A stretch of DNA of 44,133 nucleotides from Candidatus Spechtbacteria bacterium RIFCSPLOWO2_12_FULL_38_22 (lineage in GTDB: Bacteria; Patescibacteriota; Minisyncoccia; Spechtbacterales; 2-12-FULL-38-22): positions 1-44,133 of the forward strand of contig MHOK01000009.1 in the NCBI GenBank assembly GCA_001820055.1, in the 5' to 3' direction. Below are positions 1 to 36,162 of this stretch, in pieces (position 1 is the stretch's first letter; each line of letters begins with the position of its first letter). The translations under genes and the position numbers were made by a program. The notes under the pieces were generated by a model, which was not told the DNA's origin, searched no databases, and saw only the letters and a program-made list of their open reading frames with translations.

Positions 1-96
1 CAAAGGAGGCGGGGCGACGGACTCGCCCGCGCGGAGGAGGGGTCTGGGGAGGAATCCGCGCGGGCTTCGGCTTTCTTTTTTTAAAAAATCGGCGGC
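1..96. repeat. Left arm of a long GC-rich inverted repeat (truncated by window start)
   Basis: Bases 1-96 are the exact reverse complement of 1644-1739. Internal 11-bp hairpin GCCCGCGCGGA/TCCGCGCGGGC (25-35/55-65). Confidence 0.97.
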
Positions 97-165
97 TAAA
101 AAATTAGAAAATGTCATAGTGTATTTTAGTATAACATTGTCTGTAAATATAACAAAGTGTAAAAT

Positions 166-501
166 ATGGATAATATGGCTGATAAGTTCAGATCAGATAA
201 ATACCGCAAGGCGAGAGATGGGTACTCTCGGTTTTTGAATGTTCTTTGCGAACATTGTGGCGCAAAAATCCTTGTTTATCAGAAAGACGGCCCCGGCCCT
301 CTGAAACGTCTTTACCTAGATAGGATTTTTGCGCCAGAAAATTTGGCAAATTTTCAAAAACTCTCAATAGGTAATGTGCCGAATTTAATTTGTCAAAAAT
401 GTAAATCTGTTTTGGCTATTCCATATATTTACAAAAAGGAGCAACGAAAAGCATACCGGCTTTTTGTGGGTGCAGTCACTAAAAAAATTACAAAAGTATG
501 A
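166..501 (+). CDS. Basic Zn-ribbon hypothetical protein
   Basis: Two CxxC pairs (CEHC, CQKC). ATGA overlap with the next gene. Confidence 0.75.
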   Translation: MDNMADKFRSDKYRKARDGYSRFLNVLCEHCGAKILVYQKDGPGPLKRLYLDRIFAPENLANFQKLSIGNVPNLICQKCKSVLAIPYIYKKEQRKAYRLFVGAVTKKITKV

Positions 502-704
502 ATCCAGCTTCCGAAAAATTAGGCCTAAACATGAAGCGCATCAGAGCCAAAAAGAAAATGTCGCAAGGTGATATTGCTCGCGCTTTAGAGGTTGATAGGG
601 GTTATATTAGTAATATTGAGAACGGCAAGAAAAATCCAACCCTTGCGACAATCCAAAAGTTGGCTGATGCGCTTGGAGTATCGGCTGATGAACTTTTGAA
701 ATAA
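498..704 (+). CDS. XRE-family HTH transcriptional regulator
   Basis: MSQGDIARALEVDRGYISNIENGKKNPTLATIQKLADALGV is a classic HTH_3 pattern. Confidence 0.95.
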   Translation: MNPASEKLGLNMKRIRAKKKMSQGDIARALEVDRGYISNIENGKKNPTLATIQKLADALGVSADELLK

Positions 705-708
705 ATTT

Positions 709-1245
709 ATGAATATGTTATACGAACAAATTGCAAAAATCATAGAGCCCTCAATCTGCGACAGTGAAAACACTCGCATAAATTTCCTTAAGAGATTAGA
801 AGAAGGAAATTTTACTAGAGACGAAAATCCGCAAACTCACTATTGCGCCTATTTCCTTCCTTACGACCAGAAGGAGAAAAAAGTTTTTATCGTCCATCAT
901 AAAAAGTCCGATCTTTGGCTTTCTCCTGGCGGACATATTGATAAAGGCGAAGGACTTTTAGAAACTTTGAATAGAGAAATTGATGAGGAGCTTGGAGTAA
1001 AAAACTTTTTTAAAGAAGCCCAATCTCCATTTTTATTGACTATCACTCCGATTGAAAATAAGGTTCAACCTTGTAAAGTTCATTATGATATTTGGTATTT
1101 AGTTCTCACAGACGGTTCAAATTTTAATGTTGATCCGAAAGAATTTCACGAAACAAGATGGCTAACGATTGAGGAAGCAGAGAAAATCGTTACCGATGGA
1201 CCAAACAGGAAAGCATTAGAAATTGTAAAGAAAAAATATGAATAA
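709..1245 (+). CDS. NUDIX hydrolase
   Basis: Nudix box PGGHIDKGEGLLETLNREIDEELG. Confidence 0.93.
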   Translation: MNMLYEQIAKIIEPSICDSENTRINFLKRLEEGNFTRDENPQTHYCAYFLPYDQKEKKVFIVHHKKSDLWLSPGGHIDKGEGLLETLNREIDEELGVKNFFKEAQSPFLLTITPIENKVQPCKVHYDIWYLVLTDGSNFNVDPKEFHETRWLTIEEAEKIVTDGPNRKALEIVKKKYE

Positions 1246-1639
1246 AAAATCACTAGACCCAGCTGGACATTTAACGCTCGCCGTTAGTAATCTTGAAAAA
1301 AGCAAAAAATTTTATAAATCCTTGTTTGGAAAACTGAAATTCAAACAGATTCGAGACGGCGAGCGTAGCGTGGCTTGGGCTACGCGAGAAGGTTTTGGTA
1401 TTTGGATTAGGCAAGCAAAACATGCCAAGCCGCGCTATAAGTATTTTGCGCCTAGCCTTCAACACTTATGCGTAAAAGCAAAAACGAGGAAAACAGTTGA
1501 TGAAATCTACAAGCTTATGTCGGCAAAGAAAATTTTCGTCTTTGACGAACCAAAAGCTTATCCTGAATATACGCCGAAATATTATGCCGTTTTCTTTGCC
1601 GACCCAGATGGAATAAAAATTGAGATTGCCTATTATTAA
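1238..1639 (+). CDS. VOC/glyoxalase family protein
   Basis: HLTLAVSNLEKSKKFY at the N-terminus, QHLC, and FFADPDGIKIE at the C-terminus. Confidence 0.92.
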   Translation: MNKKSLDPAGHLTLAVSNLEKSKKFYKSLFGKLKFKQIRDGERSVAWATREGFGIWIRQAKHAKPRYKYFAPSLQHLCVKAKTRKTVDEIYKLMSAKKIFVFDEPKAYPEYTPKYYAVFFADPDGIKIEIAYY

Positions 1640-1643
1640 TGTT

Positions 1644-1739
1644 GCCGCCGATTTTTTAAAAAAAGAAAGCCGAAGCCCGCGCGGATTCCTCCCCAGACCC
1701 CTCCTCCGCGCGGGCGAGTCCGTCGCCCCGCCTCCTTTG
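1644..1739. repeat. Right arm of the GC-rich inverted repeat
   Basis: Exact reverse complement of 1-96. Begins after a 4-nt gap following the VOC stop codon. Confidence 0.97.
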
Positions 1740-1788
1740 CCCCAGAAAAATAGTGGCGGGGCGCATCATTTCAGATTTCGCTCTGCGC

Positions 1789-1814
1789 CCGTCCATAGCT
1801 TTACGCGAAGGAGG
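1789..1814. repeat. REP-like short element (CCGTCC...CGAAGGAGG)
   Basis: Shares both ends with the element at 29531-29565. Confidence 0.5.
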
Positions 1815-1960
1815 GTTTTGGATTTGTGTATCAAATTTGGTAAAATAATTTCAAAAGTTTGTGAAGGTTTTAATTCGGGAGCCAATTTTTGAATCATATT
1901 TTGTAATAGTTGTTTTTAATACCCCCCCCGCAGGGTTTATATATTTGATATACTTAGAAT

Positions 1961-2428
1961 ATGAAAAAAATAGTGTTGCTAGGTCGTGGTGGGGCAGGTA
2001 AATCAACCACAGCTAGAAAGATCGGTGAGATAGCAAGCTTACCCGTTATTGAATTAGATAAATATTTTTGGCAACCAGGCCTAATACCATTAAGCAAAGA
2101 GAGGTGGATATTAAAACAAAGAGAACTTGCTATTAATGATAGGTGGATTATGGACGGTGACTTGGGCAAATACGATGTTTTAAATGAAAGATTAAAACTA
2201 GCTGATACAATAATAATTTTAAACTTTCCTTTTTGGACCTGTTTTCTTCGTGCATCAAAACGCTCAAAAGAAAGAATGGATTTTTGGTGGTGGCTATTCA
2301 CTTGGCGCTTTTTAGAACTACCTAAAATTATGAAAATGATTAAAGATTATTCGCCGACATCTGCAGTTATAATAATAAAAAGTCAGAAAGAATTAGACAA
2401 TTTTTTAATGAAAATTAAAAACAACTAA
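1961..2428 (+). CDS. P-loop kinase, adenylate kinase/FlaR (topology modulation)-like
   Basis: GRGGAGKST, ELDKYFWQPG, WIMDG, RLKLADTII. Confidence 0.85.
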   Translation: MKKIVLLGRGGAGKSTTARKIGEIASLPVIELDKYFWQPGLIPLSKERWILKQRELAINDRWIMDGDLGKYDVLNERLKLADTIIILNFPFWTCFLRASKRSKERMDFWWWLFTWRFLELPKIMKMIKDYSPTSAVIIIKSQKELDNFLMKIKNN

Positions 2429-2512
2429 ATCATTTTTTATTTTTATCCAATCCAAAGTTCTAAATCTGTCTAACAATGCGAGCCAAGAAACTAGATATGT
2501 TAAAATGAAAAC

Positions 2513-3967
2513 ATGAATAAAGTTTTTAACACAAGATATTTAGTACATTTGGTATTGGCTGGTTTGTTTAGTTTTTTAGTTTTTAACTTGACTTATGCTG
2601 TTAGGCCAAGCGACTATGATCTAAAAGAAGGTGACACTACTAGCGCATCCGGATCTGATGACCCAGACGTTTATATAATTAACGAACATGGATATAAAAG
2701 GTTATTTTTGAATCCAGTCATTTTTAATTTTTATGGACATTTAGGGGGCTTTGCAAAAGTAAAAGCAATTTCTCCAAGTACTCGAGATGCATTTATAACT
2801 TCAGGGCTGTTTCGCAATTGTGAAGCAAACGACGAGAAAGTATACGGGTTAGAATCAACTGGCGAAGATACTTCAATACTTCACTGGATTAACACCACCG
2901 GCGCTCAAGCGGTAATTGACGACCCTAATTTTTTCAAAAAGGTATTTTGTATTAATAATAATGAGTTTAATTGGTATTTAAAAGGCTCAGATTACAACTC
3001 TGTAAACCAAATACCCGTTTACTCTCGAGATACTACATCAACGTCTACTGTAAGAGTGGGAATTATAGAATTTGTGCCACAAAATGTTGTTTATGGTGAT
3101 GTGCACTATGCTTATTTGAAAAAAACATCTGGGTGTTGGCTTAGCTCCGGTGGAGAAATTGGAAACTATTATTGGGTGTCCGGCTCAAATCAATCCATTC
3201 ACTCAAGTGATTGTTACGACATACTAGAAACGTATTCTTTCCTTGATATTTTTAATAACCTCAGTAAGGGCATATCCAAAAATGTTCAGAGGACAATATA
3301 CGGGGAGGAGGATACTATGGAAACACTACATTCTGTTTATTACATTAAAGATTTCTATGAAAAGGAAGCATTAAAATACGGCGTTTCCGACCTAGCAATT
3401 GATATTGATGTAAAGGGTCCTTATATGCTTGCAAGCGATCCACCGTTAGGTGGCCGGTGGGGTGTGGGGGAGGGGGTATGTAACGCCAGTCTAACGGAGT
3501 TTTTTGTCAACGAGGCGATAAGTAGAGGGGTTGATGAAAGCCAATATGATGTAATCGCATACGTATATTTGGGCGATTGGCAACTGTCTGGTAGATCGTA
3601 TGAAGGATTTACGAGTTGCGCAACTGGTTCAAAAAGTTTTATGACAGTTACTACGTGGCGACTTCCACAAGAGGATGAGGGCGTAGTGACACTCGCTCAT
3701 GAATTAGGTCATAGTTTTGGAGCGAGCGATTATTACACATCGCCTTGCCCTCAAAATCCTACATTGTGGTCTTGCGTGAAGGACCCGGAAGGCATACCGG
3801 AGCCAAATAAAATACCTAAGTATCCACAAACAAAGGGCTGCTTGATGGCTCAGATTATAGCATACAATAAACCAGGGTCAGATGAAGCAGGCGACGCAAC
3901 TAGTATTTCCAATCTTAATCAGGCTGTAATATGTGACGCCACAGCCAGAGAGTTTGGCTGGAGATGA
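2513..3967 (+). CDS. Secreted zinc metallopeptidase with a distinct N-terminal domain
   Basis: Signal peptide, HELGHSFGASD (HExGHxxGxxD), candidate Met-turn CLMA. Confidence 0.8.
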   Translation: MNKVFNTRYLVHLVLAGLFSFLVFNLTYAVRPSDYDLKEGDTTSASGSDDPDVYIINEHGYKRLFLNPVIFNFYGHLGGFAKVKAISPSTRDAFITSGLFRNCEANDEKVYGLESTGEDTSILHWINTTGAQAVIDDPNFFKKVFCINNNEFNWYLKGSDYNSVNQIPVYSRDTTSTSTVRVGIIEFVPQNVVYGDVHYAYLKKTSGCWLSSGGEIGNYYWVSGSNQSIHSSDCYDILETYSFLDIFNNLSKGISKNVQRTIYGEEDTMETLHSVYYIKDFYEKEALKYGVSDLAIDIDVKGPYMLASDPPLGGRWGVGEGVCNASLTEFFVNEAISRGVDESQYDVIAYVYLGDWQLSGRSYEGFTSCATGSKSFMTVTTWRLPQEDEGVVTLAHELGHSFGASDYYTSPCPQNPTLWSCVKDPEGIPEPNKIPKYPQTKGCLMAQIIAYNKPGSDEAGDATSISNLNQAVICDATAREFGWR

Positions 3968-4064
3968 TACTAAACTGTTTGCTCTCCGGACTGGAATTTT
4001 ACATAAACACATATTTGTGCGGGGTAGTTAAAAATAACCCAATAAGTTGTGTTACAATTAGGTT

Positions 4065-4523
4065 ATGAAAAGCAATTTTATTTCAGCAGTTGTTAATATC
4101 ACCATTCTTTCTGTTACTATTTTTGCTGTCAGTATTTATTTTATTTCTAACAATGAACTGATTGGCGTAATAATTTTTGGATTAGGTATTCTTTGTCTTA
4201 TTTCTTTAATTCCCTTTAAAATATCCATAAGTAAGATTTGGCCAGATATCATTTTTGGGTTAATTGATGACGGAATTTTAGCAATATTAGCTATTTTTGG
4301 AGGAAAGATAGCCGGAGTTGCCGGCGCGGTTATCGGCGGTGTTGTTGGCAACGCAATAACAGACGGTATCGCCGGAGTATTCGAGGGATATGCGGCGGAA
4401 AAAATGAGAGCAAAGAACATTTCTGACCAACGGACAATGTTAGGTTCGGCCGTAGGGAAAATGGCAGGATGTCTATTGGGTGCAGGAGCGGTTTTAATCG
4501 TAGCGAACCTGTTTAATATTTAA
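4065..4523 (+). CDS. Gly-rich membrane protein, TMEM65/VIT1-like
   Basis: Hydrophobic helices with FGLIDDG, GNAITDG and GCLLG motifs. Confidence 0.6.
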   Translation: MKSNFISAVVNITILSVTIFAVSIYFISNNELIGVIIFGLGILCLISLIPFKISISKIWPDIIFGLIDDGILAILAIFGGKIAGVAGAVIGGVVGNAITDGIAGVFEGYAAEKMRAKNISDQRTMLGSAVGKMAGCLLGAGAVLIVANLFNI

Positions 4524-4561
4524 GTCTGGTATATAAATATAATTATTTTGCCATTTAAAAT

Positions 4562-5023
4562 ATGAATCTCACAAACTTTTTTCAAAAAAATACTGTTTGG
4601 AAGAAACTTTTTTTCGTATCGTTCTTCCTTTTTCTATATTGGCCCCTAACTAATATACTAGAGGGAGATTACATATCAGCTTTGTGGACTTTTGGAGTCG
4701 GCACGATGCTTTATGCAGGTTCGTATAGTTTACTTAGGTTAGATGGAAAGATACAAATGTTTTGTGGAGTGGCAATTGTTAGCGCAACAGTTTTAACAAT
4801 GTTTATGCTTTTTAGTTTAGGATTAGGTACAGCGACTGAGATTAATTACATAGAATTGGCACCATATATTTTTTCGTCGATTTTTATGTTCATAGCTAGC
4901 TCTCTTAGATTTATTCAAAAATGGGGCTTGAAAACCTTACTTTTGATTTTGTTGATTGCCTGGTTTTCAATAAGGGTACTTAGCTACGTAAAGAGTAAGA
5001 GTATGTTTTATTTGGGATTATAA
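4562..5023 (+). CDS. Multi-pass membrane protein, unknown function
   Basis: About 5 hydrophobic segments. Confidence 0.7.
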   Translation: MNLTNFFQKNTVWKKLFFVSFFLFLYWPLTNILEGDYISALWTFGVGTMLYAGSYSLLRLDGKIQMFCGVAIVSATVLTMFMLFSLGLGTATEINYIELAPYIFSSIFMFIASSLRFIQKWGLKTLLLILLIAWFSIRVLSYVKSKSMFYLGL

Positions 5024-5111
5024 AGATAAACTGTTTTGCAACGCTCATAATTCGGAGATATAATAAATTTTTGTTACTGAACCCGAGGTTAGTAGGTTCA
5101 GTTTAAAATAT

Positions 5112-5141
5112 AAAAAAACCACCTTTCACTTGGTGGTTTTT
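5112..5141. terminator. Bidirectional intrinsic terminator
   Basis: AAAAAAACCACC-loop-GGTGGTTTTT between convergent genes. Confidence 0.75.
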
Positions 5142-5156
5142 GATGTGTCGTTTTTG

Positions 5157-5723
5157 CTACTCGGAAGGTGCAATTTGGATACGCACAGGTTCTGTATTCA
5201 AAATAAGTGGCTGGTCAAAAACCAGAAGGTTATCACCGTAGATTATTCCCATAGCATCTGTTGCCGCATCTTTAACAATCCAACCAGTACACGATGCACT
5301 TGCGCCCGCCCCGCCGTAGTAGATGCCATCAAGCGACGGCGCTGTAAGGATCATGTTTCCCCATTGACTTTCTTTTATATCCTCCGTAGAAGAAAGAAAA
5401 GCGCATACATTAACAGGGATAGTAGTGCTTACAAAGTAGAGGACCGCATTCCCATTCTCTCCAAGAACATATATATACCACGGATGGTTTATAAGATCTT
5501 GGCGCTGTGTATACTCTACTAAAAGTTCGCGTAAAGGGAAGTTCTCTTGCATGGGTGCTGGGTATAACGCTTCAGCACGTTCAAAGTTCTTCCAACGTGC
5601 GGAGATTGCATCCTTGCGGCTTTCCTCTCCACCCGGAGTTTCTGTAGTGTCACCACATGCCGTACCAAGTAACAAAAAGGCAAGTATTGCTAACAGGAGC
5701 TTGATTCCTAGTTTATTGCGCAT
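5157..5723 (-). CDS. Lipoprotein, unknown function
   Basis: Basic N-terminus, hydrophobic core, lipobox LGTA-C. SD AAGGAGGT 8 nt upstream. Confidence 0.85.
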   Translation of the reverse strand: MRNKLGIKLLLAILAFLLLGTACGDTTETPGGEESRKDAISARWKNFERAEALYPAPMQENFPLRELLVEYTQRQDLINHPWYIYVLGENGNAVLYFVSTTIPVNVCAFLSSTEDIKESQWGNMILTAPSLDGIYYGGAGASASCTGWIVKDAATDAMGIIYGDNLLVFDQPLILNTEPVRIQIAPSE

Positions 5724-6151
5724 CTGGTTTTACCTCCTTCGGGGTAGTTTGTGTCTGGAATCTGGTAAGGAAGATCTGTATCGCGGAATTGTCCTTCGGT
5801 CCAGTCTTTCAAAGCGTCCTGGTTGTATCGTGCGATCGCCTGATGGCGTGCGCCCTTAACTCCGGCGATACTCGTTACTGTGATATTGTATTCACGCGAT
5901 CCAGATTGGTAATATCCAAGTGCAGTAGTAAGTTCATCGATCTGTCCTTCAAGGCCCTGAATGGAAGCACATTGGTTGAAAAAAGTCTGATATGCCTGAA
6001 TCTGGAAGTCTGCCGACTGGATGTCTTTGTGGGCTTCACCACGGCCATAGATGCCCGCGGTTGCAACACCAAGACCCCAAATCGCAACGACTACTAACCA
6101 CAATGCAAGAAAAACGAGTATGACAGTTGTTACTGCTTTACGGTTACTCAC
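5708..6151 (-). CDS. N-terminally anchored helical protein, unknown function
   Basis: GTG start with AAGGAG SD. One TM helix. 16-nt overlap with the lipoprotein gene. Confidence 0.85.
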   Translation of the reverse strand: MSNRKAVTTVILVFLALWLVVVAIWGLGVATAGIYGRGEAHKDIQSADFQIQAYQTFFNQCASIQGLEGQIDELTTALGYYQSGSREYNITVTSIAGVKGARHQAIARYNQDALKDWTEGQFRDTDLPYQIPDTNYPEGGKTRCAIN

Positions 6152-6171
6152 GTTTTCTCCTTTCGGTGATG

Positions 6172-6242
6172 ATTATAGCAAAATATTAAAAAAAGTCAAG
6201 AGCTCACGATAATTTGACTAACTGTCAGTTTTGTGATAGTAT
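6172..6242. promoter_or_regulatory. Back-to-back sigma70-type promoters
   Basis: Minus strand: TTGACT(6199-6194)-16-TATAAT(6177-6172). Plus strand: TTGACT(6214)-17-TAGTAT(6237). Both have TGn. Confidence 0.75.
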
Positions 6243-6268
6243 TTTTTTAGTTGTTAGGAGCTGAGAAA

Positions 6269-6586
6269 ATGTCACAAGAAGCTTACAAGGTATTAAAAGA
6301 AGATCTAACAAACGTAGGACTTTTAAATGCTCCCCAAATACAATACGCTTTTGGAAGATGGATTAGCCCCATAGAGCCACTGTCCACTCATGCAAGAAAA
6401 GGTGGCGGGCTGTGGGTAGCTCCGACGCTATCTGTTGCTAGGCAATATGTTAGATATTTAAGAAAAAAACATGGTATTACGGCCAGAGTATTTAAGTGCC
6501 GTATAGGAAAAATTCTTTACAGATCATCGTGCAGAATAAAGACAGATAAGTTATTTTTTACAAAAGCGGACGAAATAAAAATATAG
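6269..6586 (+). CDS. Basic hypothetical protein
   Basis: ATG 6269 is preceded by TAGGAG, so it is preferred over TTG 6251. Terminator follows. Confidence 0.75.
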   Translation: MSQEAYKVLKEDLTNVGLLNAPQIQYAFGRWISPIEPLSTHARKGGGLWVAPTLSVARQYVRYLRKKHGITARVFKCRIGKILYRSSCRIKTDKLFFTKADEIKI

Positions 6587-6618
6587 AGCTCATGCGTTCA
6601 CTCGATATGGGCTTTTTT
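6586..6618 (+). terminator. Intrinsic terminator
   Basis: GAGCTCATG...TATGGGCTT stem with G-U pairs, then a T tract. Confidence 0.55.
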
Positions 6619-7019: not shown

Positions 7020-8231
7020 ATGAATCTGAAATTTCCAGAGAATTTTTTTTGGGGATGCGCTACAAGCGCGCATCAAGTGGAGGGCAATAATAAAAACAAT
7101 GATTGGTGGCGCGCAGAACAGATAGGAGAAGTGCCATATAAATCAGAAGAGGCGTGTGATTCATATAATCGCTATCAAGAAGATTTTGATTTAGCAAAAA
7201 AAATGCACAATAACGCGCATCGCTTTTCTATTGAATGGAGCAGAATTGAACCACGCGAAGGAAATTTTAACCAAAATGAAATAGAGCATTATCGTAAAGT
7301 AATTCATGCGCTCAAAGAACGCGGTATGGAGCCGTTTGTTACACTTCATCATTTTACAAACCCTATTTGGTTTGCTGACATCGGTGGTTGGGCAAACAAA
7401 AAAGCGCCTTTTTATTTTGCGCGCTACGCAGAATATGTGGTTAAAAATTTAGGAGAGGAGGTTAAATATTGGATAACCATAAACGAGCCAAATGTATATG
7501 TGGGTATGTTGGCCTTAGGATATGGTCCCTGGACACATTGGCCCGACCAATCTCGTAAAAATTTTTTTAGGTTTATGCGTTTAGCAAAGAACATGACTAA
7601 AGCGCATAAAAAAGCTTATAAAAAAATAAAAAAGTTACAGCCCAATAGTTTTGTAGGGCTTAACCACGGGAATGTTTTTGTTGGTCGCGCTAACAATAAT
7701 CTTGTTACTTATTTCGTCTGGTTTTTAGTTAATTGGTTTAAAAATAAGTTATTTTTAAATAAAGTAGCAAGGTATTTGGATTTTGTAGGTTTTAGCTACT
7801 ATACACGAGTTATAATCACCCCCAGTTTTTCTAATCCGGAAACGTGGGTAAGGTGGGAGCATAAAGATGACAGACCGGTCGCAGATGGTGGCTGGGAAAT
7901 ATATCCGCAAGGTATATATTTTGTTACTAAACAGGCCATGCGCTACAAAAAACCAATTTTTATTTTTGAAAATGGCATAGCCGACGCAGACGACGACCAA
8001 CGGTCTATGTTTATAAAAAACCATTTACGTTGGCTTCATAAGGCAATAAGCGAAGGGGCGGATGTGCGCGGATATTTTTATTGGTCGCTACTGGACAATT
8101 TTGAGTGGGCAGAAGGTTTTAAGCAGAAGTTTGGATTAGTGGAAGTTAATTTTAATACGTTTGAACGTAAAGCGCGCCCAAGCAGTATTTTTTATGCGCA
8201 AATATGTAAAGATAATGAGTTAAAAATTTAA
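7020..8231 (+). CDS. Glycoside hydrolase family 1 (beta-glucosidase-like)
   Basis: FPENFFWGCATSAHQVEG, TINEP (acid/base), FENG (nucleophile), YWSLLDNFEW. Confidence 0.96.
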   Translation: MNLKFPENFFWGCATSAHQVEGNNKNNDWWRAEQIGEVPYKSEEACDSYNRYQEDFDLAKKMHNNAHRFSIEWSRIEPREGNFNQNEIEHYRKVIHALKERGMEPFVTLHHFTNPIWFADIGGWANKKAPFYFARYAEYVVKNLGEEVKYWITINEPNVYVGMLALGYGPWTHWPDQSRKNFFRFMRLAKNMTKAHKKAYKKIKKLQPNSFVGLNHGNVFVGRANNNLVTYFVWFLVNWFKNKLFLNKVARYLDFVGFSYYTRVIITPSFSNPETWVRWEHKDDRPVADGGWEIYPQGIYFVTKQAMRYKKPIFIFENGIADADDDQRSMFIKNHLRWLHKAISEGADVRGYFYWSLLDNFEWAEGFKQKFGLVEVNFNTFERKARPSSIFYAQICKDNELKI

Positions 8232-9359: not shown

Positions 9360-9884
9360 ATGGTGTTGGATATAAAATTATTCTATTTTTTTAATAACCT
9401 TGTTGATAAGTTTCAGATTTTTGACACTCTCGTTGTTTTTTTCGCCGCTTATTTGCAGTATTTTTTTGTCGCATCATTTTTTATATTTTTGTATTTTTCA
9501 GCGTATTCAAAACGGAAAAAACTTTATATATTGGCAGTAACCACTTTTTCTAGCATTTTTGCTCGCTTGGGAGTAACCGAAATTATTCGCTTTTTTTATC
9601 ATCGTCCTCGTCCGTTTATTACATACCAAATTCATCAACTTATCCCTGAAAACGGCTGGTCGTTTCCATCAGGTCATTCGGCTTTCTTTTTTGCAATAGC
9701 AATGTCTGTGTATTTTTATAATAAAAAATGGGGTATTGGATTTTTTGTTGGCGCAATTTTAATGAATATAAGTCGTATTATCGTAGGAGTACATTACCCA
9801 TCGGATATTATTGGTGGCGCAATTGTGGGCGTGCTTGTTAGTTTTATTGTTTTTCGTATTACCAAAAAATTATCTAAAAAGTAG
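9360..9884 (+). CDS. PAP2 phosphatase (undecaprenyl-PP phosphatase-like)
   Basis: RPRP, FPSGHS, SRIIVGVHYPSD. Confidence 0.93.
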   Translation: MVLDIKLFYFFNNLVDKFQIFDTLVVFFAAYLQYFFVASFFIFLYFSAYSKRKKLYILAVTTFSSIFARLGVTEIIRFFYHRPRPFITYQIHQLIPENGWSFPSGHSAFFFAIAMSVYFYNKKWGIGFFVGAILMNISRIIVGVHYPSDIIGGAIVGVLVSFIVFRITKKLSKK

Positions 9885-9938
9885 GAAAAGGTGTATACTA
9901 AAGTATAAAATAAATAGTAATTTAATCTTAGTATATTT

Positions 9939-10061
9939 ATGTCAAAAAGAAGAACTGGTGTTGAAAAGCATAGAAAGTCACGCTCTCACAAAACCCAAAA
10001 ACGTTTAGAGATAAAACGACTTATGCTTGAAGCTAAAAAAAGTAAGAAAAAGCAAAAATAA
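9939..10061 (+). CDS. 40-aa highly basic small protein (absent from the ORF track)
   Basis: MSKRRTGVEKHRKSRSHKTQKRLEIKRLMLEAKKSKKKQK, 18/40 K+R. Fills the intergenic gap. Confidence 0.65.
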   Translation: MSKRRTGVEKHRKSRSHKTQKRLEIKRLMLEAKKSKKKQK

Positions 10062-10489: not shown

Positions 10490-11287
10490 ATGTACAAAGT
10501 TGGAAATCCGAGTCAGTTAATTATCGTAAGGCATGCGGAATCAGAATTAAATGTTTTATTACAGGATATAGTAAATGATCCAGAATTTAGAAAATTAAAA
10601 GAACTACTTAGAACAAACCCCTATTCTGGTGTAGTAAGGAAAATCGCCGAAAAATTAAGGCAAAAATATGCTGGTCGCATGGTTGCGGACTATTTGGTTG
10701 GCTTAACGGCGGAGGGCGAACGTCAAGCTCTTGAGACGGGCGTAAAATTAGGACAGATTATTGAACCTTCGGAGATTAATGTTATTTTTGTGTCACCCTA
10801 CGCCAGAGCGTTGCAAACACTAGAAAAACTGAAGGAAACATGGCCAAAACTCAATAACGTACGCACTAGTAGTGTTTTTGTTGAGGACGCGTTAAGAGAA
10901 CAAGAAATGGGCTTAGCGCATACGTATGGCAGTTTTGTTTTATTTTTTGCTCTTAACGATCAAGATAGAAATATGTATTATGTAGACGCGTACGCCCCGT
11001 ATTTTTACAGATTTCCTAACGGAGAAAGCGTGGCTGACTTAAGAGCACGAGTAAATAGTTGGTATGACAGAGTAATGCTTGAACACAGAGGTAGAACGGT
11101 TTTGGTTGTGTCGCATGGTCGTACGATATCCGCAATTAGGGCAAGAATAGAGAATTGGAGTTCTCAAAGGTTTATAGACGAACATGTGGACGGCAAAGTT
11201 CATAATTGTGGTGTTAGTATCTATAGAGATATAAAACAACAACGTGGAATGGAATTAGTGGATTTTAATATGAAACTTTGGGATTAA
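10490..11287 (+). CDS. Histidine phosphatase (phosphoglycerate mutase-like)
   Basis: IIVRHAES, SPYARALQT, LREQEMG, PNGES, VVSHG. SD AAGGAGGT. Confidence 0.92.
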   Translation: MYKVGNPSQLIIVRHAESELNVLLQDIVNDPEFRKLKELLRTNPYSGVVRKIAEKLRQKYAGRMVADYLVGLTAEGERQALETGVKLGQIIEPSEINVIFVSPYARALQTLEKLKETWPKLNNVRTSSVFVEDALREQEMGLAHTYGSFVLFFALNDQDRNMYYVDAYAPYFYRFPNGESVADLRARVNSWYDRVMLEHRGRTVLVVSHGRTISAIRARIENWSSQRFIDEHVDGKVHNCGVSIYRDIKQQRGMELVDFNMKLWD

Positions 11288-11327: not shown

Positions 11328-11795
11328 ATGGTTATTGTTTTAGACAATATCAGAAGCATACAAAATGTTGGTACAATTTTTCGTACCGCCGACGCCATAA
11401 ATGTAGAAAAGATATACTTATGCGGAATTACGCCCAGTCCGTTGGACGAATTTGGAAGAAAGCGCCAGCAGTTAGTAAAAATTTCTTTAGGCGCGGAAAA
11501 TTCTATAAAATGGGGGAAATGTAAACAGACATATCGCGTGTTGGATGATTTAAAAAAACAGGGTTACAGAATTTATGTAGTAGAACAAGCTAAAAATTCT
11601 ATCCCGTATTTTAAGGTTAAAATATCAAATAGGAAAAAAATAGTTTTAGTTTTGGGGCATGAGTTGGGAGGAGTATCCAAAAGTACTCTTAAAAGAGCGG
11701 ATAAGATTTTGGAAATACCTATGGCGGGCTCTAAACAGTCGTTGAACGTAGCAATCGCAGGAGCAATTGTTATGTTCCATCTTGAATATACCTAA
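11328..11795 (+). CDS. SpoU/TrmH-family RNA methyltransferase
   Basis: LDNIRSIQNVGTIFRTAD, LGHE, EIPMAGSKQSLNVA. Confidence 0.94.
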   Translation: MVIVLDNIRSIQNVGTIFRTADAINVEKIYLCGITPSPLDEFGRKRQQLVKISLGAENSIKWGKCKQTYRVLDDLKKQGYRIYVVEQAKNSIPYFKVKISNRKKIVLVLGHELGGVSKSTLKRADKILEIPMAGSKQSLNVAIAGAIVMFHLEYT

Positions 11796-12055
11796 TGGAT
11801 ATTGAAACAGAGTTGGGAAAATTAAAAAACTGGAAATTGCAGGATAATAAAATTATTAAGGATTTTGTATTTAAAAATTTTGCCCAAACAATGATATTTA
11901 TAAATAAGGTAGCAGAGTTTGCAGAAGAACTAAATCACCACCCCGATATGTATATATCGTATAACAAGGTAAAAATAGAATTAACAACTCATGAGGTTGG
12001 TGGGGTCTCTGAGAAGGATTTTGTATTGGCTAAAAAAATAGATGATACTAACTAA
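11795..12055 (+). CDS. Pterin-4a-carbinolamine dehydratase
   Basis: AEELNHHPD, LTTHEVGGVSEKD. Confidence 0.94.
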   Translation: MDIETELGKLKNWKLQDNKIIKDFVFKNFAQTMIFINKVAEFAEELNHHPDMYISYNKVKIELTTHEVGGVSEKDFVLAKKIDDTN

Positions 12056-13816: not shown

Positions 13817-14263
13817 ATGGATAAATACATTTGGACTTCACATGCTCAATACAAGATGCGCTATTATAGAATGTCAGAAAGTCTGGTAAAAAGAGTGGTT
13901 CGTTACCCCACAAGGGTAGAGGAGGGGGTGATAGAAAACGCAGTTGCATGCATGAGACCTGCGCATTTAAATAGTACTTCGACCCGTTCGGTACCAGTAG
14001 GCGTTTTGACTGTGGGCTCCCAGCCTTCTCCGCCAGCTGGCGGATTCGGCGGGCAGGCGAAACAGGCCAAGCCTAAAAGATATTCTGAACTGTGGGTAAT
14101 GTATTTGTTGACTTCGTCGACGGGTAACAAAAAACAAACAGAAAGTAATAAACAAAAGCAAGTAAAGATTATCACTGCATGGAGATATCCTGGACTTAGT
14201 CCAAAACGCAATCCAGTACCAGCAAACATACTAGAGGAGGCCAAGAGAATAATTAGTATATAA
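13817..14263 (+). CDS. Hypothetical protein, possible RelE/BrnT/DUF4258-like fold, with internal repeat-derived insert
   Basis: WTSHAQYKM...KRVVRYP...KIITAW. GC-rich low-complexity insert at about 13960-14075. Confidence 0.7.
   Translation: MDKYIWTSHAQYKMRYYRMSESLVKRVVRYPTRVEEGVIENAVACMRPAHLNSTSTRSVPVGVLTVGSQPSPPAGGFGGQAKQAKPKRYSELWVMYLLTSSTGNKKQTESNKQKQVKIITAWRYPGLSPKRNPVPANILEEAKRIISI
14023..14058. repeat. REP-like palindrome inside a CDS
   Basis: Perfect 16-bp palindrome TCCGCCAGCTGGCGGA at 14029-14044, encoding PPAGG. Confidence 0.8.
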
Positions 14264-15406: not shown

Positions 15407-15853
15407 ATGAAATTTTTAGGTAAGGTTATTGATGCAGGAAATGTATACGCGCATTGTGATTTAATGTGCGGGGTTTACGATCCTGCTCAGGCACGGATTG
15501 AAGCGCAATCTGTTTATAATGCGGTAAAACTATATCAGACAGCACTCAATGACGAGGCGTTTAAACAGCGCACAATTCTTATAAAGGAAGAACGAGCACA
15601 AATAGTTAAGCACCATTTGTGGGTTTTGTGGACGGATTATTTTAAAGAGGAGCATGCGAAAAAATTTAAAAACCTGCATGATTTATTTTGGCAAGCTACA
15701 AAAGCCGCTGGGGATATAAAAAAATCCGTAGAGCTGGCGGATGCGCAGAAATTAATTGATTTGATAGACGAAATTGGTTATATTTTTGAACAAACTAAAG
15801 AAGGATATAATTACAGCGCAGTGAAAAAGAATTTAGAAATTCAAACTAAATAA
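15407..15853 (+). CDS. sodN: Nickel superoxide dismutase precursor
   Basis: 15-aa leader, then Ni-hook HCDLMCGVYDPAQARIEA. KHHLWVLWTDYFK. Confidence 0.95.
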   Translation: MKFLGKVIDAGNVYAHCDLMCGVYDPAQARIEAQSVYNAVKLYQTALNDEAFKQRTILIKEERAQIVKHHLWVLWTDYFKEEHAKKFKNLHDLFWQATKAAGDIKKSVELADAQKLIDLIDEIGYIFEQTKEGYNYSAVKKNLEIQTK

Positions 15854-35199: not shown

Positions 35200-36162
35200 A
35201 TGCAACACTCCCCTAAACCTATACTAGACCACATTCCTGACTTCTTAGATTACTGCGAAATAGAAAAGGGATTAGCATCTAAGACGCAAGAAAATTATCA
35301 AAGGTATTTAAATATATTTGTACTTTGGTTAAAGCAAACTAAAAATGAGGGTTTACTCCCCCACCAGCTTACAGCAGAGAACATATGGGATTATAGATTA
35401 TTTCTTTCCCGTAAATATAAAACACAGCAGGGCGGAACTCTTAAAAAAATAACTCAAAATTATTATCTTGTAGCGCTTAGAGCATTACTAGATTACTTTA
35501 CGGACCGCGATATTACTTCCCTGCCCTCTGGCAAGATAAAATTGCCGAAAGATGCAAAACAAAAAACTATAAAATTTCTAAACTTGGAACAAATACGTAA
35601 ACTACTAGAAACTCCTGATATTAAAACTAAAAGCGGGCTTCGTGATAGAGCTATAATTGAAACGCTTTTTTCAACCGGTTTACGCATTGCAGAGCTTACT
35701 GCCCTAAACCGCAATCAAATACATTTTAAGGACAAAGATGGCCTAGAATTGACTGTTGTGGGCAAAGGAAATACCCCTAGAACTGTCTATTTTTCGCCCA
35801 GAGCCCTCCAATGGCTAAAAAGGTACTTGGATAGCCAAAATGACATGGATGAGGCCTTGTTCGTCCATTTTAGAGCTAAAAACAGTGCTGAAAGCAAGCG
35901 ATTATCGGCCCGCTTCATAGAATCGGCTATAAAACGCTATTCCCAGCTTGCAGGGCTTCCCATAAGTGTCACACCACATACATTGAGGCATTCCTACGCC
36001 ACCGACCTTTTAACGCAAGGCGTAGATCTCCGTACGGTGCAGGAATTTTTAGGGCATAAAAATATAACAACTACTCAAATTTATACCCACATTACAAGCA
36101 AGCGCCTAAAGGATATTCACAGAAAATTCCATGGCGGTAATAAGTTAGACAATGAAGAATAA
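35200..36162 (+). CDS. XerC/D-type tyrosine recombinase
   Basis: N-terminal SAM-like domain, RDRA, TGLRIAEL, GKG, TPHTLRHSYAT, LGH, TTQIYTH. Confidence 0.96.
   Translation: MQHSPKPILDHIPDFLDYCEIEKGLASKTQENYQRYLNIFVLWLKQTKNEGLLPHQLTAENIWDYRLFLSRKYKTQQGGTLKKITQNYYLVALRALLDYFTDRDITSLPSGKIKLPKDAKQKTIKFLNLEQIRKLLETPDIKTKSGLRDRAIIETLFSTGLRIAELTALNRNQIHFKDKDGLELTVVGKGNTPRTVYFSPRALQWLKRYLDSQNDMDEALFVHFRAKNSAESKRLSARFIESAIKRYSQLAGLPISVTPHTLRHSYATDLLTQGVDLRTVQEFLGHKNITTTQIYTHITSKRLKDIHRKFHGGNKLDNEE

Follow-up and report, generated by a model that had tools for sequence, protein, structure and literature searches.

The window analyzed here is a 44,133-nucleotide stretch of DNA from Candidatus Spechtbacteria bacterium RIFCSPLOWO2_12_FULL_38_22 (contig MHOK01000009.1, positions 1 to 44,133). 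At its left end lies a compact four-gene cassette bracketed by GC-rich inverted repeats, which is the subject of this work. A promoter, a Zn-ribbon protein gene and an XRE regulator gene form the head of the cassette, a NUDIX hydrolase gene and a VOC-fold gene form its cargo, and the repeats are referred to as arms. An initial annotation of this DNA had proposed an invertible segment or a non-autonomous gene-capture unit mobilized in trans, an interpretation that the present data partly support. The features are listed below, where L001 and L002 are two of seven related records from the Candidate Phyla Radiation (CPR, or Patescibacteria) and R1 is a covariance model of the inner 129 positions of the arm.

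1–96, plus strand: left arm, the inner 96 nt of a repeat unit of about 241 nt; 100% complementary to 1644–1739 and cut in the middle of hairpin H2
26–64, plus strand: left copy of hairpin H3, in which the 9-bp stems consist of G/C pairs and covary in relatives, and the 21-nt loop is G-rich
97–174, plus strand: head control region, with a sigma-70-like promoter (−35 at 137–142, −10 at 160–165) and upstream repeats conserved in an alignment of nine heads
175–501, plus strand: Zn-ribbon protein gene, 108 residues, first head gene; called from its reading frame and homologues, with an alternative upstream ATG at 166
498–704, plus strand: XRE/Cro-C1-type helix-turn-helix regulator gene, 68 residues, second head gene; Pfam HTH_3 3.4e-19, its start overlapping the Zn-ribbon stop
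709–1245, plus strand: first cargo gene, NUDIX hydrolase; Pfam NUDIX 8.1e-16, unmatched in the relatives' cassettes
1238–1639, plus strand: second cargo gene, VOC/glyoxalase-fold protein; Pfam Glyoxalase/VOC 4.6e-11, unmatched in the relatives' cassettes
1644–1884, minus strand (the G-rich, inward-reading one): right arm, full repeat unit; the alignment with the L001 and L002 arms stops at 1884, and R1 scores 158 bits
1676–1714, minus strand: hairpin H3, right copy; supported by its fold and by covariation in relatives
1724–1763, minus strand: hairpin H2; 9-bp stems and a 22-nt loop, straddling the point at which the left arm is cut
1783–1815, no strand: 33-nt insertion inside the arm, present only in the window's copy when aligned with L001 and L002

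The four open reading frames (166 or 175 to 501, 498–704, 709–1245 and 1238–1639) are tightly packed or overlapping, as the initial annotation had described. The −10 box lies only about 10 nt ahead of the ATG at 175, which is probably the start of the Zn-ribbon gene since its homologues are 108 residues long. The conserved upstream repeats within 97–174 may be the operator of the XRE protein, which in PADLOC matches the restriction-modification "controller" model (Control_protein, 2.5e-16) and CapH (2.9e-11). Pfam bears out the XRE, NUDIX and VOC assignments made at the outset, whereas the Zn-ribbon call draws on two CxxC pairs and on sub-threshold Pfam matches (E 0.007, 16.5 bits against a cut-off of 27). 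The same scan found no recombinase or transposase domain in 1–1739, in agreement with the earlier statement that the cassette carries no mobility gene.

Positions 1–96 and 1644–1739 are perfect reverse complements (96 nt, 100%), separated by a spacer of 1547 nt, and 4 nt lie between the last stop codon and the right arm (TAA at 1637–1639, arm from 1644); both observations had been made before and hold. Pairing stops at bases 97 and 1643, which makes the inner end of the repeat genuine. The left arm is visible over only 96 nt because the window starts there, the outer end being the window's first base. Alignment of the right arm with the arms of L001 and L002 gives a full repeat unit of about 241 nt (1644–1884). 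The length of at least 96 bp first reported is thus correct for what is visible and represents a truncation of this longer unit, and the stretch past 1739 to 1884 was not part of the right arm as first described. R1 matches 1–102 starting at model position 28 and flags the match as cut at its 5′ end. The contrast between GC-rich arms and AT-rich surroundings is confirmed, with GC fractions of 0.62 in 1–100 and 0.60–0.68 in 1651–1800 against 0.362 across the window, and the GC-rich block extends beyond 1739 to about 1884.

This repeat is not expected by chance. Two copies of a 39-nt arm core are present among the 44,133 bases, where 0 of 100 shuffles gave any match, and the motif CCGCGCGG occurs four times, every copy inside the arms, against an expectation of about 0.15 (0 of 100 shuffles reached four). 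The window holds no arm copies besides the two. Hairpin H3 has 9 G/C pairs, 11 pairs in the minimum-energy fold and a loop of 19–21 nt; the 11-pair hairpin of the initial annotation is found at 26–64 and 1676–1714, whereas the purine-rich loop assigned to it applies only to the plus strand of the left arm. A third hairpin, H1, was considered and dropped, being specific to the window, with half of it inside the 33-nt insertion, and not conserved.

To place the cassette in a wider context, an alignment of the Zn-ribbon proteins was searched against genome contigs, which yielded 306 relatives, from which 78 loci were kept. All 78 appear to come from CPR-type metagenome genomes, and the window's own genome is not among them. 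Seven of these records (L001–L007) combine a 108-residue Zn-ribbon protein, a 68-residue XRE protein, varied cargo and a GC-rich arm. When positions 1–2000 of the window were compared with the loci by blastn, L001–L007 were similar over the promoter and both head genes, L001–L004 and L006 also had the arm in common with the window, and the NUDIX and VOC genes of the window matched in none of the seven. Head DNA is 82.9–90.4% identical among the window and L001–L006 and 69.8–73.0% identical to L007. The XRE protein is 88–97% identical to those of L001–L006, 69% to that of L007 and 81% to a second XRE protein in L001. The inverted arm pairs, located by self-comparison, and the cargo of each element are as follows.

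Window: arms as above; cargo NUDIX and VOC
L001: arms 283–410 / 5164–5291, inverted, 128 nt, 96.9%, plus two inner 42-nt pairs; cargo of the first cassette a methyltransferase and two proteins of no assigned family, of the second XRE, reverse transcriptase and membrane protein
L002: arms 80–342 / 1933–2191, inverted, 264 nt, 97%; cargo HIT and NUDIX
L003: right arm only, with a tRNA-Ala gene adjoining the promoter on the left side; cargo DUF218 and isochorismatase-like
L004: arms 1574–1631 / 4208–4261, inverted, 58 nt, 84%; cargo Ham1, HIT, a protein of no assigned family and a serine hydrolase
L005: a 1763-nt contig that begins and finishes in inner arm ends; cargo CYTH and HAD
L006: arms 9729–9923 / 11725–11918, inverted, 195 nt, 96.4%; cargo GrpB and DUF218
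L007: arms 1–55 / 2626–2680, inverted, 55 nt, 94.5%; cargo ASCH and GNAT-ASCH

Arms flank both sides in all four loci in which both sides lie inside the contig (L001, L002, L004 and L006), and the contig ends within an arm in three of the eight elements (the window, L005 and L007); assemblies tend to break in this repeat. Comparison of the window with the 78 loci, along the lines that had been suggested for it, placed the arm in five of them, with cargo that differs throughout, and L001–L007 bear out the picture of a constant head followed by changing cargo between inverted arms. Within the window and these loci, the arm is not the dispersed, unpaired, high-copy repeat that the initial annotation had held up as a counter-case, with two copies in the window and a paired arrangement in four of four loci.

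The cargo is different in every element. Similarity between elements ends at the XRE stop codon and restarts at the arm. In four of the eight cassettes the last cargo stop is the TAG of an arm-terminal TAGCC, and in the other four the arm lies 1–4 nt downstream. L002 and L004 each contain a HIT gene, in different gene orders, and these two genes share 92.7% protein identity and, over 500 nt, 90.4% DNA identity. Between its outer arms L001 carries a second cassette placed back to back with the first (L001:2613–5291), which has the same promoter, an XRE gene, no Zn-ribbon gene and its own 42-nt inner repeat pair. The reverse transcriptase of this second cassette is of a defense type (PADLOC RT_UG13b, 2e-136), and its membrane protein has a lycopene-cyclase domain. 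The cargo had at first been described as detoxification genes; the Pfam assignments of the relatives' genes fit small nucleotide or "house-cleaning" enzymes better.

The surroundings of the elements share nothing with one another. Among the window, L001–L004 and L006, blastn gave 0 matches outside the elements at E ≤ 1e-6. Locus GC ranges over 34–45%, against 36–39% for the heads, and the record titles name Doudna-, Magasanik-, Yonath-, Jackson- and Peribacteria, which are separate NCBI candidate phyla where checked. No other protein found exceeds 73% identity to the glutamyl-tRNA synthetase of the window, against 91% for the Zn-ribbon protein. The synthetase is nearest to proteins named Spechtbacterales (54–60%), and the host is, judging by this synthetase, a Parcubacteria-type CPR bacterium without close sequenced relatives. 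Taken together, the unrelated flanks, the spread in GC, the differing phylum labels and the contrast between the synthetase and the Zn-ribbon protein point to horizontal spread of the cassette between lineages.

The arms themselves are conserved in structure. R1 detected 11 arm copies at E ≤ 1e-12, confined to the window, L001–L004 and L006, and gave no match below E 0.5 in L008–L078; the arm is thus neither a general CPR repeat nor a housekeeping RNA. The motif at the inner arm end occurs elsewhere in the loci only as scattered single matches. In the model-fitted alignment of the arms, 96.6% of cells in the two conserved hairpins H2 and H3 are paired, against 79.8 ± 2.1% after shuffling and 40–60% in controls with slid partners. 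Ten of the 18 pairs vary on both sides, a count reached by 0 of 500 shuffles, and in H2 both sides have changed in 8 of the 9 helix pairs among relatives. RNAalifold recovered the same two helices from a plain MAFFT alignment, with 8 of 22 pairs compensatory. The hairpin loops are almost invariant among arms.

Arm identity within an element is 94–97% (in the window, 100% across the visible 96 nt), compared with 57–95% between elements. Arms that are alike within an element and differ down to 57% between elements, while the heads remain about 85% identical, must evolve in concert, which supports the active homogenization suggested when the perfect arms of the window were first noted.

The element with most to say about mobility is L006. 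Here a gene for a 501-residue large serine recombinase is flanked by a separate pair of 124-nt inverted repeats (8005–8128 / 9611–9734), and this recombinase cassette sits directly between a tRNA-Ala gene and the Zn–XRE cassette. The inner ends of its repeats resemble the arm ends. The protein resembles XisF (1e-28) and CcrB (5e-25), both matches falling below the family cut-offs. The last 41 codons of the recombinase gene lie inside one of the repeats, and the tRNA-Ala gene ends where the repeat starts (L006:7937–9734). Past the far arm of the Zn–XRE cassette lies a 3′ fragment of a different tRNA gene with an 11-nt direct repeat (L006:11919–11975). Positions 1–79 of L002, where that contig ends, weakly resemble the inner part of the repeat of the L006 recombinase cassette (21 nt, 90%, E 0.06). 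Overall, tRNA genes adjoin three of the eight elements (L003, L004 and L006), and none of the eight Zn–XRE cassettes contains a recombinase.

We favor, with moderate confidence, the reading that window positions 1–1884 are a member of a family of recombinase-less mobile operon cassettes in CPR/Patescibacteria, whose structured terminal repeats serve as a substrate for recombination and homogenization. The observations behind it are the architecture, its recurrence in unrelated flanks and differently labeled hosts, the replacement of cargo, the conservation of the hairpins and the concerted evolution of the arms. A cassette of this family comprises a conserved head (promoter, Zn-ribbon gene and "controller"-type XRE repressor), two to five exchangeable cargo genes, mostly encoding small hydrolases predicted to act on nucleotides or related metabolites, and inverted GC-rich ends of 200–260 nt, each with two conserved hairpins. 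The arms would be the substrate on which recombination acts. Whole cassettes may enter new sites, often next to tRNA genes, by means of a recombinase supplied in trans, for which the candidate is a large serine recombinase like that of the cassette neighboring the L006 element, whose repeats have similar ends. Exchange by homologous recombination or gene conversion, both between the two arms and between the heads and arms of different elements, would keep the arms alike and swap the cargo, and flipping of the segment could arise as a by-product of recombination between arms. Probably the arms also insulate the operon from outside transcription.

Several findings weigh against these cassettes being mobile, or narrow the basis on which mobility is proposed. 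The search for a recombinase or a target-site duplication that had been proposed for the window, when run on the relatives, found no duplication in any of the four elements with both outer flanks (L001, L002, L004 and L006; within 20-nt flanks the shared direct word never exceeds 4 nt), and a recombinase adjacent in L006 only. A serine recombinase is hence a neighbor of just one of the eight elements, and the left flanks of L003 and L004 are visible and lack one. Homologues of the L006 recombinase lie within 10 kb in only 5 of the 78 loci, and tblastn found none in the window. In L002 the repeat reaches further out and includes a 24-nt indel, so the outer ends of the elements are not sharply defined. 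L003 retains an intact head and cargo with a single arm, which means that the operon can persist without a second one. No movement was observed, in the form of an empty site, a circular junction or a pair of orientations. The sample is just eight elements with few independent arm lineages, and the host labels are those of metagenome bins, some plainly unreliable (such as bins titled "Gammaproteobacteria"). Finally, the covariation alignment was fitted to R1, and the folding energy of single arms is no better than that of shuffles (z −0.09 to −1.59), so the case for structure is carried by covariation.

Among mechanisms, recombination at the arms ranks first, followed by RNA or terminator modules, then by a programmed switch and a classical transposon, and last by an artefact. 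The second of these, which we regard as possible if rather unlikely, holds that the arms have no role in mobility and are structured RNA genes or terminator/insulator modules of the operon, the cassette having spread only by ordinary DNA uptake and homologous or illegitimate recombination. Covarying hairpins with nearly invariant loops are what a functional RNA would show, and the lack of both a target-site duplication and a sharp outer end sits well with such modules. G-U pairs favor the G-rich, inward-reading strand 4 to 1, a weak bias, and on this strand every arm closes with a T-run at its inner end. At the junction between the two L001 cassettes, a single hairpin (20 bp in the fold) stands between an A-run and a T-run and has the textbook shape of a two-way terminator (z −6.45). 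In the window, however, the T-run begins 10 nt past H3 and is therefore not a canonical terminator, and the terminator scan did not list it. No Rfam family matches: at the gathering score, Rfam 15 gave 0 matches in the window and only tRNAs in L001–L007, and at E ≤ 10 the best sub-threshold E-values over 1560–2000 were 4.6–9. The arms were found in none of the 71 other CPR loci, which argues against a housekeeping RNA, and they accompany the cassette into unrelated flanks and mark the exact end of similarity between genomes. Entry into new sites is left unexplained if the arms are transcriptional modules only.

A bolder version of the mobile-cassette reading takes the family for an unrecognized cassette-exchange system of the CPR, and we consider it quite unlikely. 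The hairpin modules of 200–260 nt would then act as structure-specific sites, in a role like that of attC, for a serine recombinase supplied in trans, very small genomes would thereby acquire, rearrange and hand on enzyme operons that bring their own regulation across candidate phyla, and the inverted bracket would result from a palindromic site split upon insertion.

It is improbable that the cassette is instead a programmed switch, in which a site-specific invertase flips the 1.5-kb segment to alter expression. Long and nearly identical inverted repeats do bracket the segment, the serine recombinase of L006 lies between inverted repeats next door, and a contig break at the arm would fit coexisting orientations. 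Against this, the segment has its own conserved promoter and regulator between symmetric arms, so that its orientation should not change expression; no invertase was found in window positions 1–6600 or beside L003 or L004; and L003 is one-armed. The sites of known invertases are usually about ten times shorter than these repeats.

More improbable still is a classical non-autonomous transposon, either a mobile insertion cassette or a composite element, in which the arm tips would be the terminal repeats of an insertion sequence recognized by a DDE transposase in trans. Inverted ends that bracket passenger genes without a transposase, in differing contexts, would fit this origin. The missing target-site duplications in the four elements with both flanks and the inconstant outer ends seen in L002 speak against it, as do Pfam scans of the reading frames around the elements, which found no transposase domain, and searches of plasmid and phage collections, in which the arm (in distant mode) had no match. 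A spurious fold-back at the end of a contig, as the source of the left arm, has a negligible probability. The arm does sit at the window's first base, and 96 nt would fit a k−1 overlap for k = 97, but a fold-back would make 1–870 the reverse complement of 870–1739 when only the 96-nt arms match. The same two-armed layout also lies deep inside the contigs of L001, L002, L004 and L006, four independent records with names in the styles of different assemblers, so the architecture did not originate as an assembly artefact.

The first head gene belongs to a family that extends well beyond the recombinase-less cassettes. Of 284 candidate homologues of the Zn-ribbon protein, 282 pass E ≤ 0.001, with identities of up to 91%, and an exhaustive search gave 566 family representatives at E ≤ 0.001 and 430 at E ≤ 1e-10. 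Several copies per locus are common. An XRE gene lies downstream in 7 of the 90 copies in the 78 loci, and these seven are exactly L001–L007; the other 83 copies lack it. We scanned 72 of the 233 reading frames adjoining the copies without XRE and found guanylate-kinase-like proteins (7), GTP cyclohydrolase II (7), proteins of the orotidine monophosphate decarboxylase family (5) and NUDIX (3). Fusions surfaced in the exhaustive search, a word-based search having given no longer forms: of 23 long representatives scanned, four are guanylate-kinase fusions, one each carries GTP cyclohydrolase II, a cytidylyltransferase-like domain and an NTPase, and 16 have no other Pfam domain.

Because these fusions and neighbors are nucleotide enzymes, the Zn-ribbon protein is, as far as sequence can tell, an accessory of such enzymes, which fits the nucleotide hydrolases in the cargo. 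A profile search of the PDB gave only an S27e-like match (E 0.16), no PADLOC or NCBIfam model matched, and tblastn against plasmid and phage collections found nothing. Two other roles were considered and rejected. A mobility protein is disfavored by the absence of any such domain and by the link to nucleotide enzymes, and a type II toxin-antitoxin pair, with the Zn-ribbon protein as toxin and the XRE protein as antitoxin, by the poor conservation of the pair (7 of 90), the fusion or adjacency of the Zn-ribbon domain to nucleotide enzymes and its lack of PADLOC or NCBIfam matches.

Distant members of the Zn-ribbon family stand beside guanylate-kinase-like, GTP cyclohydrolase II or orotidine monophosphate decarboxylase-family genes in L008, L012, L015, L018, L022, L032 and L040–L042. 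In L018, L021, L067 and L073 the genes are tandem or multi-copy, and fusions to these enzymes exist among the representatives. The neighborhood looks like an uncharacterized nucleotide pathway in the CPR. A separate arrangement was seen in an Uhrbacteria contig (L063:3487–11099), where a dispersed repeat of about 30–40 nt occurs in many copies on both strands within 8 kb; one inverted pair (9961–9998 / 11056–11093) brackets a Zn-ribbon gene, and its sequence is unrelated to the arms.

The remainder of the window is ordinary chromosome, with a mur/ftsW/murG cell-wall cluster, genes for asparaginyl- and glutamyl-tRNA synthetases, greA, and a sortase gene cut by the right end. A scan for tRNA and tmRNA genes found none in the window. 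The window's only tyrosine recombinase is an Xer-like gene at 35200–36162 (XerC model 2e-66, below the curated cut-off), which closes the cell-wall cluster at a distance of 33 kb from the cassette, and no tyrosine recombinase lies beside the elements of L001–L007. The first gene to the right of the cassette (1961–2428) encodes a small P-loop protein that matches "DNA topology modulation protein" models at 4e-34, below cut-off. A nickel superoxide dismutase gene is present at 15407–15853 (Sod_Ni 2.2e-36) in this CPR-type genome. The only other GC-rich patch (13950–14060, 0.57–0.63) is unlike the arms and falls within a 148-residue reading frame (13817–14263) beside greA that has no Pfam match.

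The genomes of CPR/Patescibacteria are tiny, these bacteria rely on nucleotide salvage, and few of their mobile elements have been characterized. If the mobile-cassette reading is true, a self-regulated, recombinase-free cassette would be a route to metabolic flexibility in these bacteria, moving nucleotide-handling and other small enzymes between distant lineages, and a class of assembly breaks would be explained. Many homologues of the Zn-ribbon head gene sit on contigs of just 0.6–2.7 kb, so binned genomes may contain too few of the cassettes; further copies could be sought directly with the arm model in combination with the head gene. A search of the open-access literature, with subscription journals and supplements outside its scope, found no published description of the element. 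The accessible portion of a survey of gene exchange in Patescibacteria makes no mention of such repeats, and the terms "inverted repeat", "recombinase" and "Nudix" do not occur there (PMC12455944).

Four known kinds of system bear comparison with the cassettes. In integrons, each promoterless cassette carries an attC hairpin once, all cassettes face one way, and the system has an integrase, an attI site and a common promoter. Like integron cassettes, those described here have compact cargo whose last reading frame ends at the putative recombination element (in four of eight the stop lies in the arm). Like attC, the boundary elements form hairpins conserved more in structure than in sequence, and the two L001 cassettes are joined by one palindromic element. 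In contrast to integrons, no integrase, attI site or common promoter was found, each cassette has its own promoter and repressor, and the elements stand on both sides in inverted orientation.

Staphylococcal cassette chromosome (SCC)-type elements, along with their recombinase-less relatives, are moved by Ccr large serine recombinases. As in that system, a recombinase-less cassette adjoins one with a large serine recombinase (in L006, with CcrB at 5e-25 and below cut-off), terminal inverted repeats are present, and the elements are located where a conserved gene, in this case one for a tRNA, has its 3′ end. The cassettes differ from SCC in that no flanking direct repeats were found, a recombinase neighbors one of eight and insertion sites vary between genomes. 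Nor are they integrative elements that encode their own large serine recombinase, which is absent from all eight cassettes; that of L006 belongs to a separate, adjacent cassette.

Mobile insertion cassettes (MICs) and Tn3-derived TIMEs carry passenger genes between inverted repeats (PMC3913671; PMC4337579; PMC4133298). Passenger genes, inverted repeats, the lack of a transposase and presumed mobilization in trans are all shared with the cassettes. MIC ends are copies of short terminal repeats belonging to a known insertion sequence, and target duplications arise when a MIC inserts, whereas the cassettes have no known parent insertion sequence, no duplication in four of four elements, and arms that are long and structured.

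The dif modules of Acinetobacter plasmids are gene modules lying between inverted XerC/XerD sites (PMC6449649; PMC13141974; PMC12907356). Their sites are 28-bp Xer sites, whereas the cassette ends are hairpin-rich and 200–260 nt long; a generic dif-like core (ATAA-N6-TTAT, at most one mismatch), a consensus that may not be that of the CPR, is absent from all 10 arm regions. Unlike these plasmid modules, the cassettes are chromosomal, occur in the CPR and have a common fixed regulatory head, and the window's only Xer-like gene is distant. With dif modules the cassettes nonetheless have in common that they are discrete, recombinase-less gene modules with inverted bounding sites, apparently shuffled between replicons and in places set side by side.

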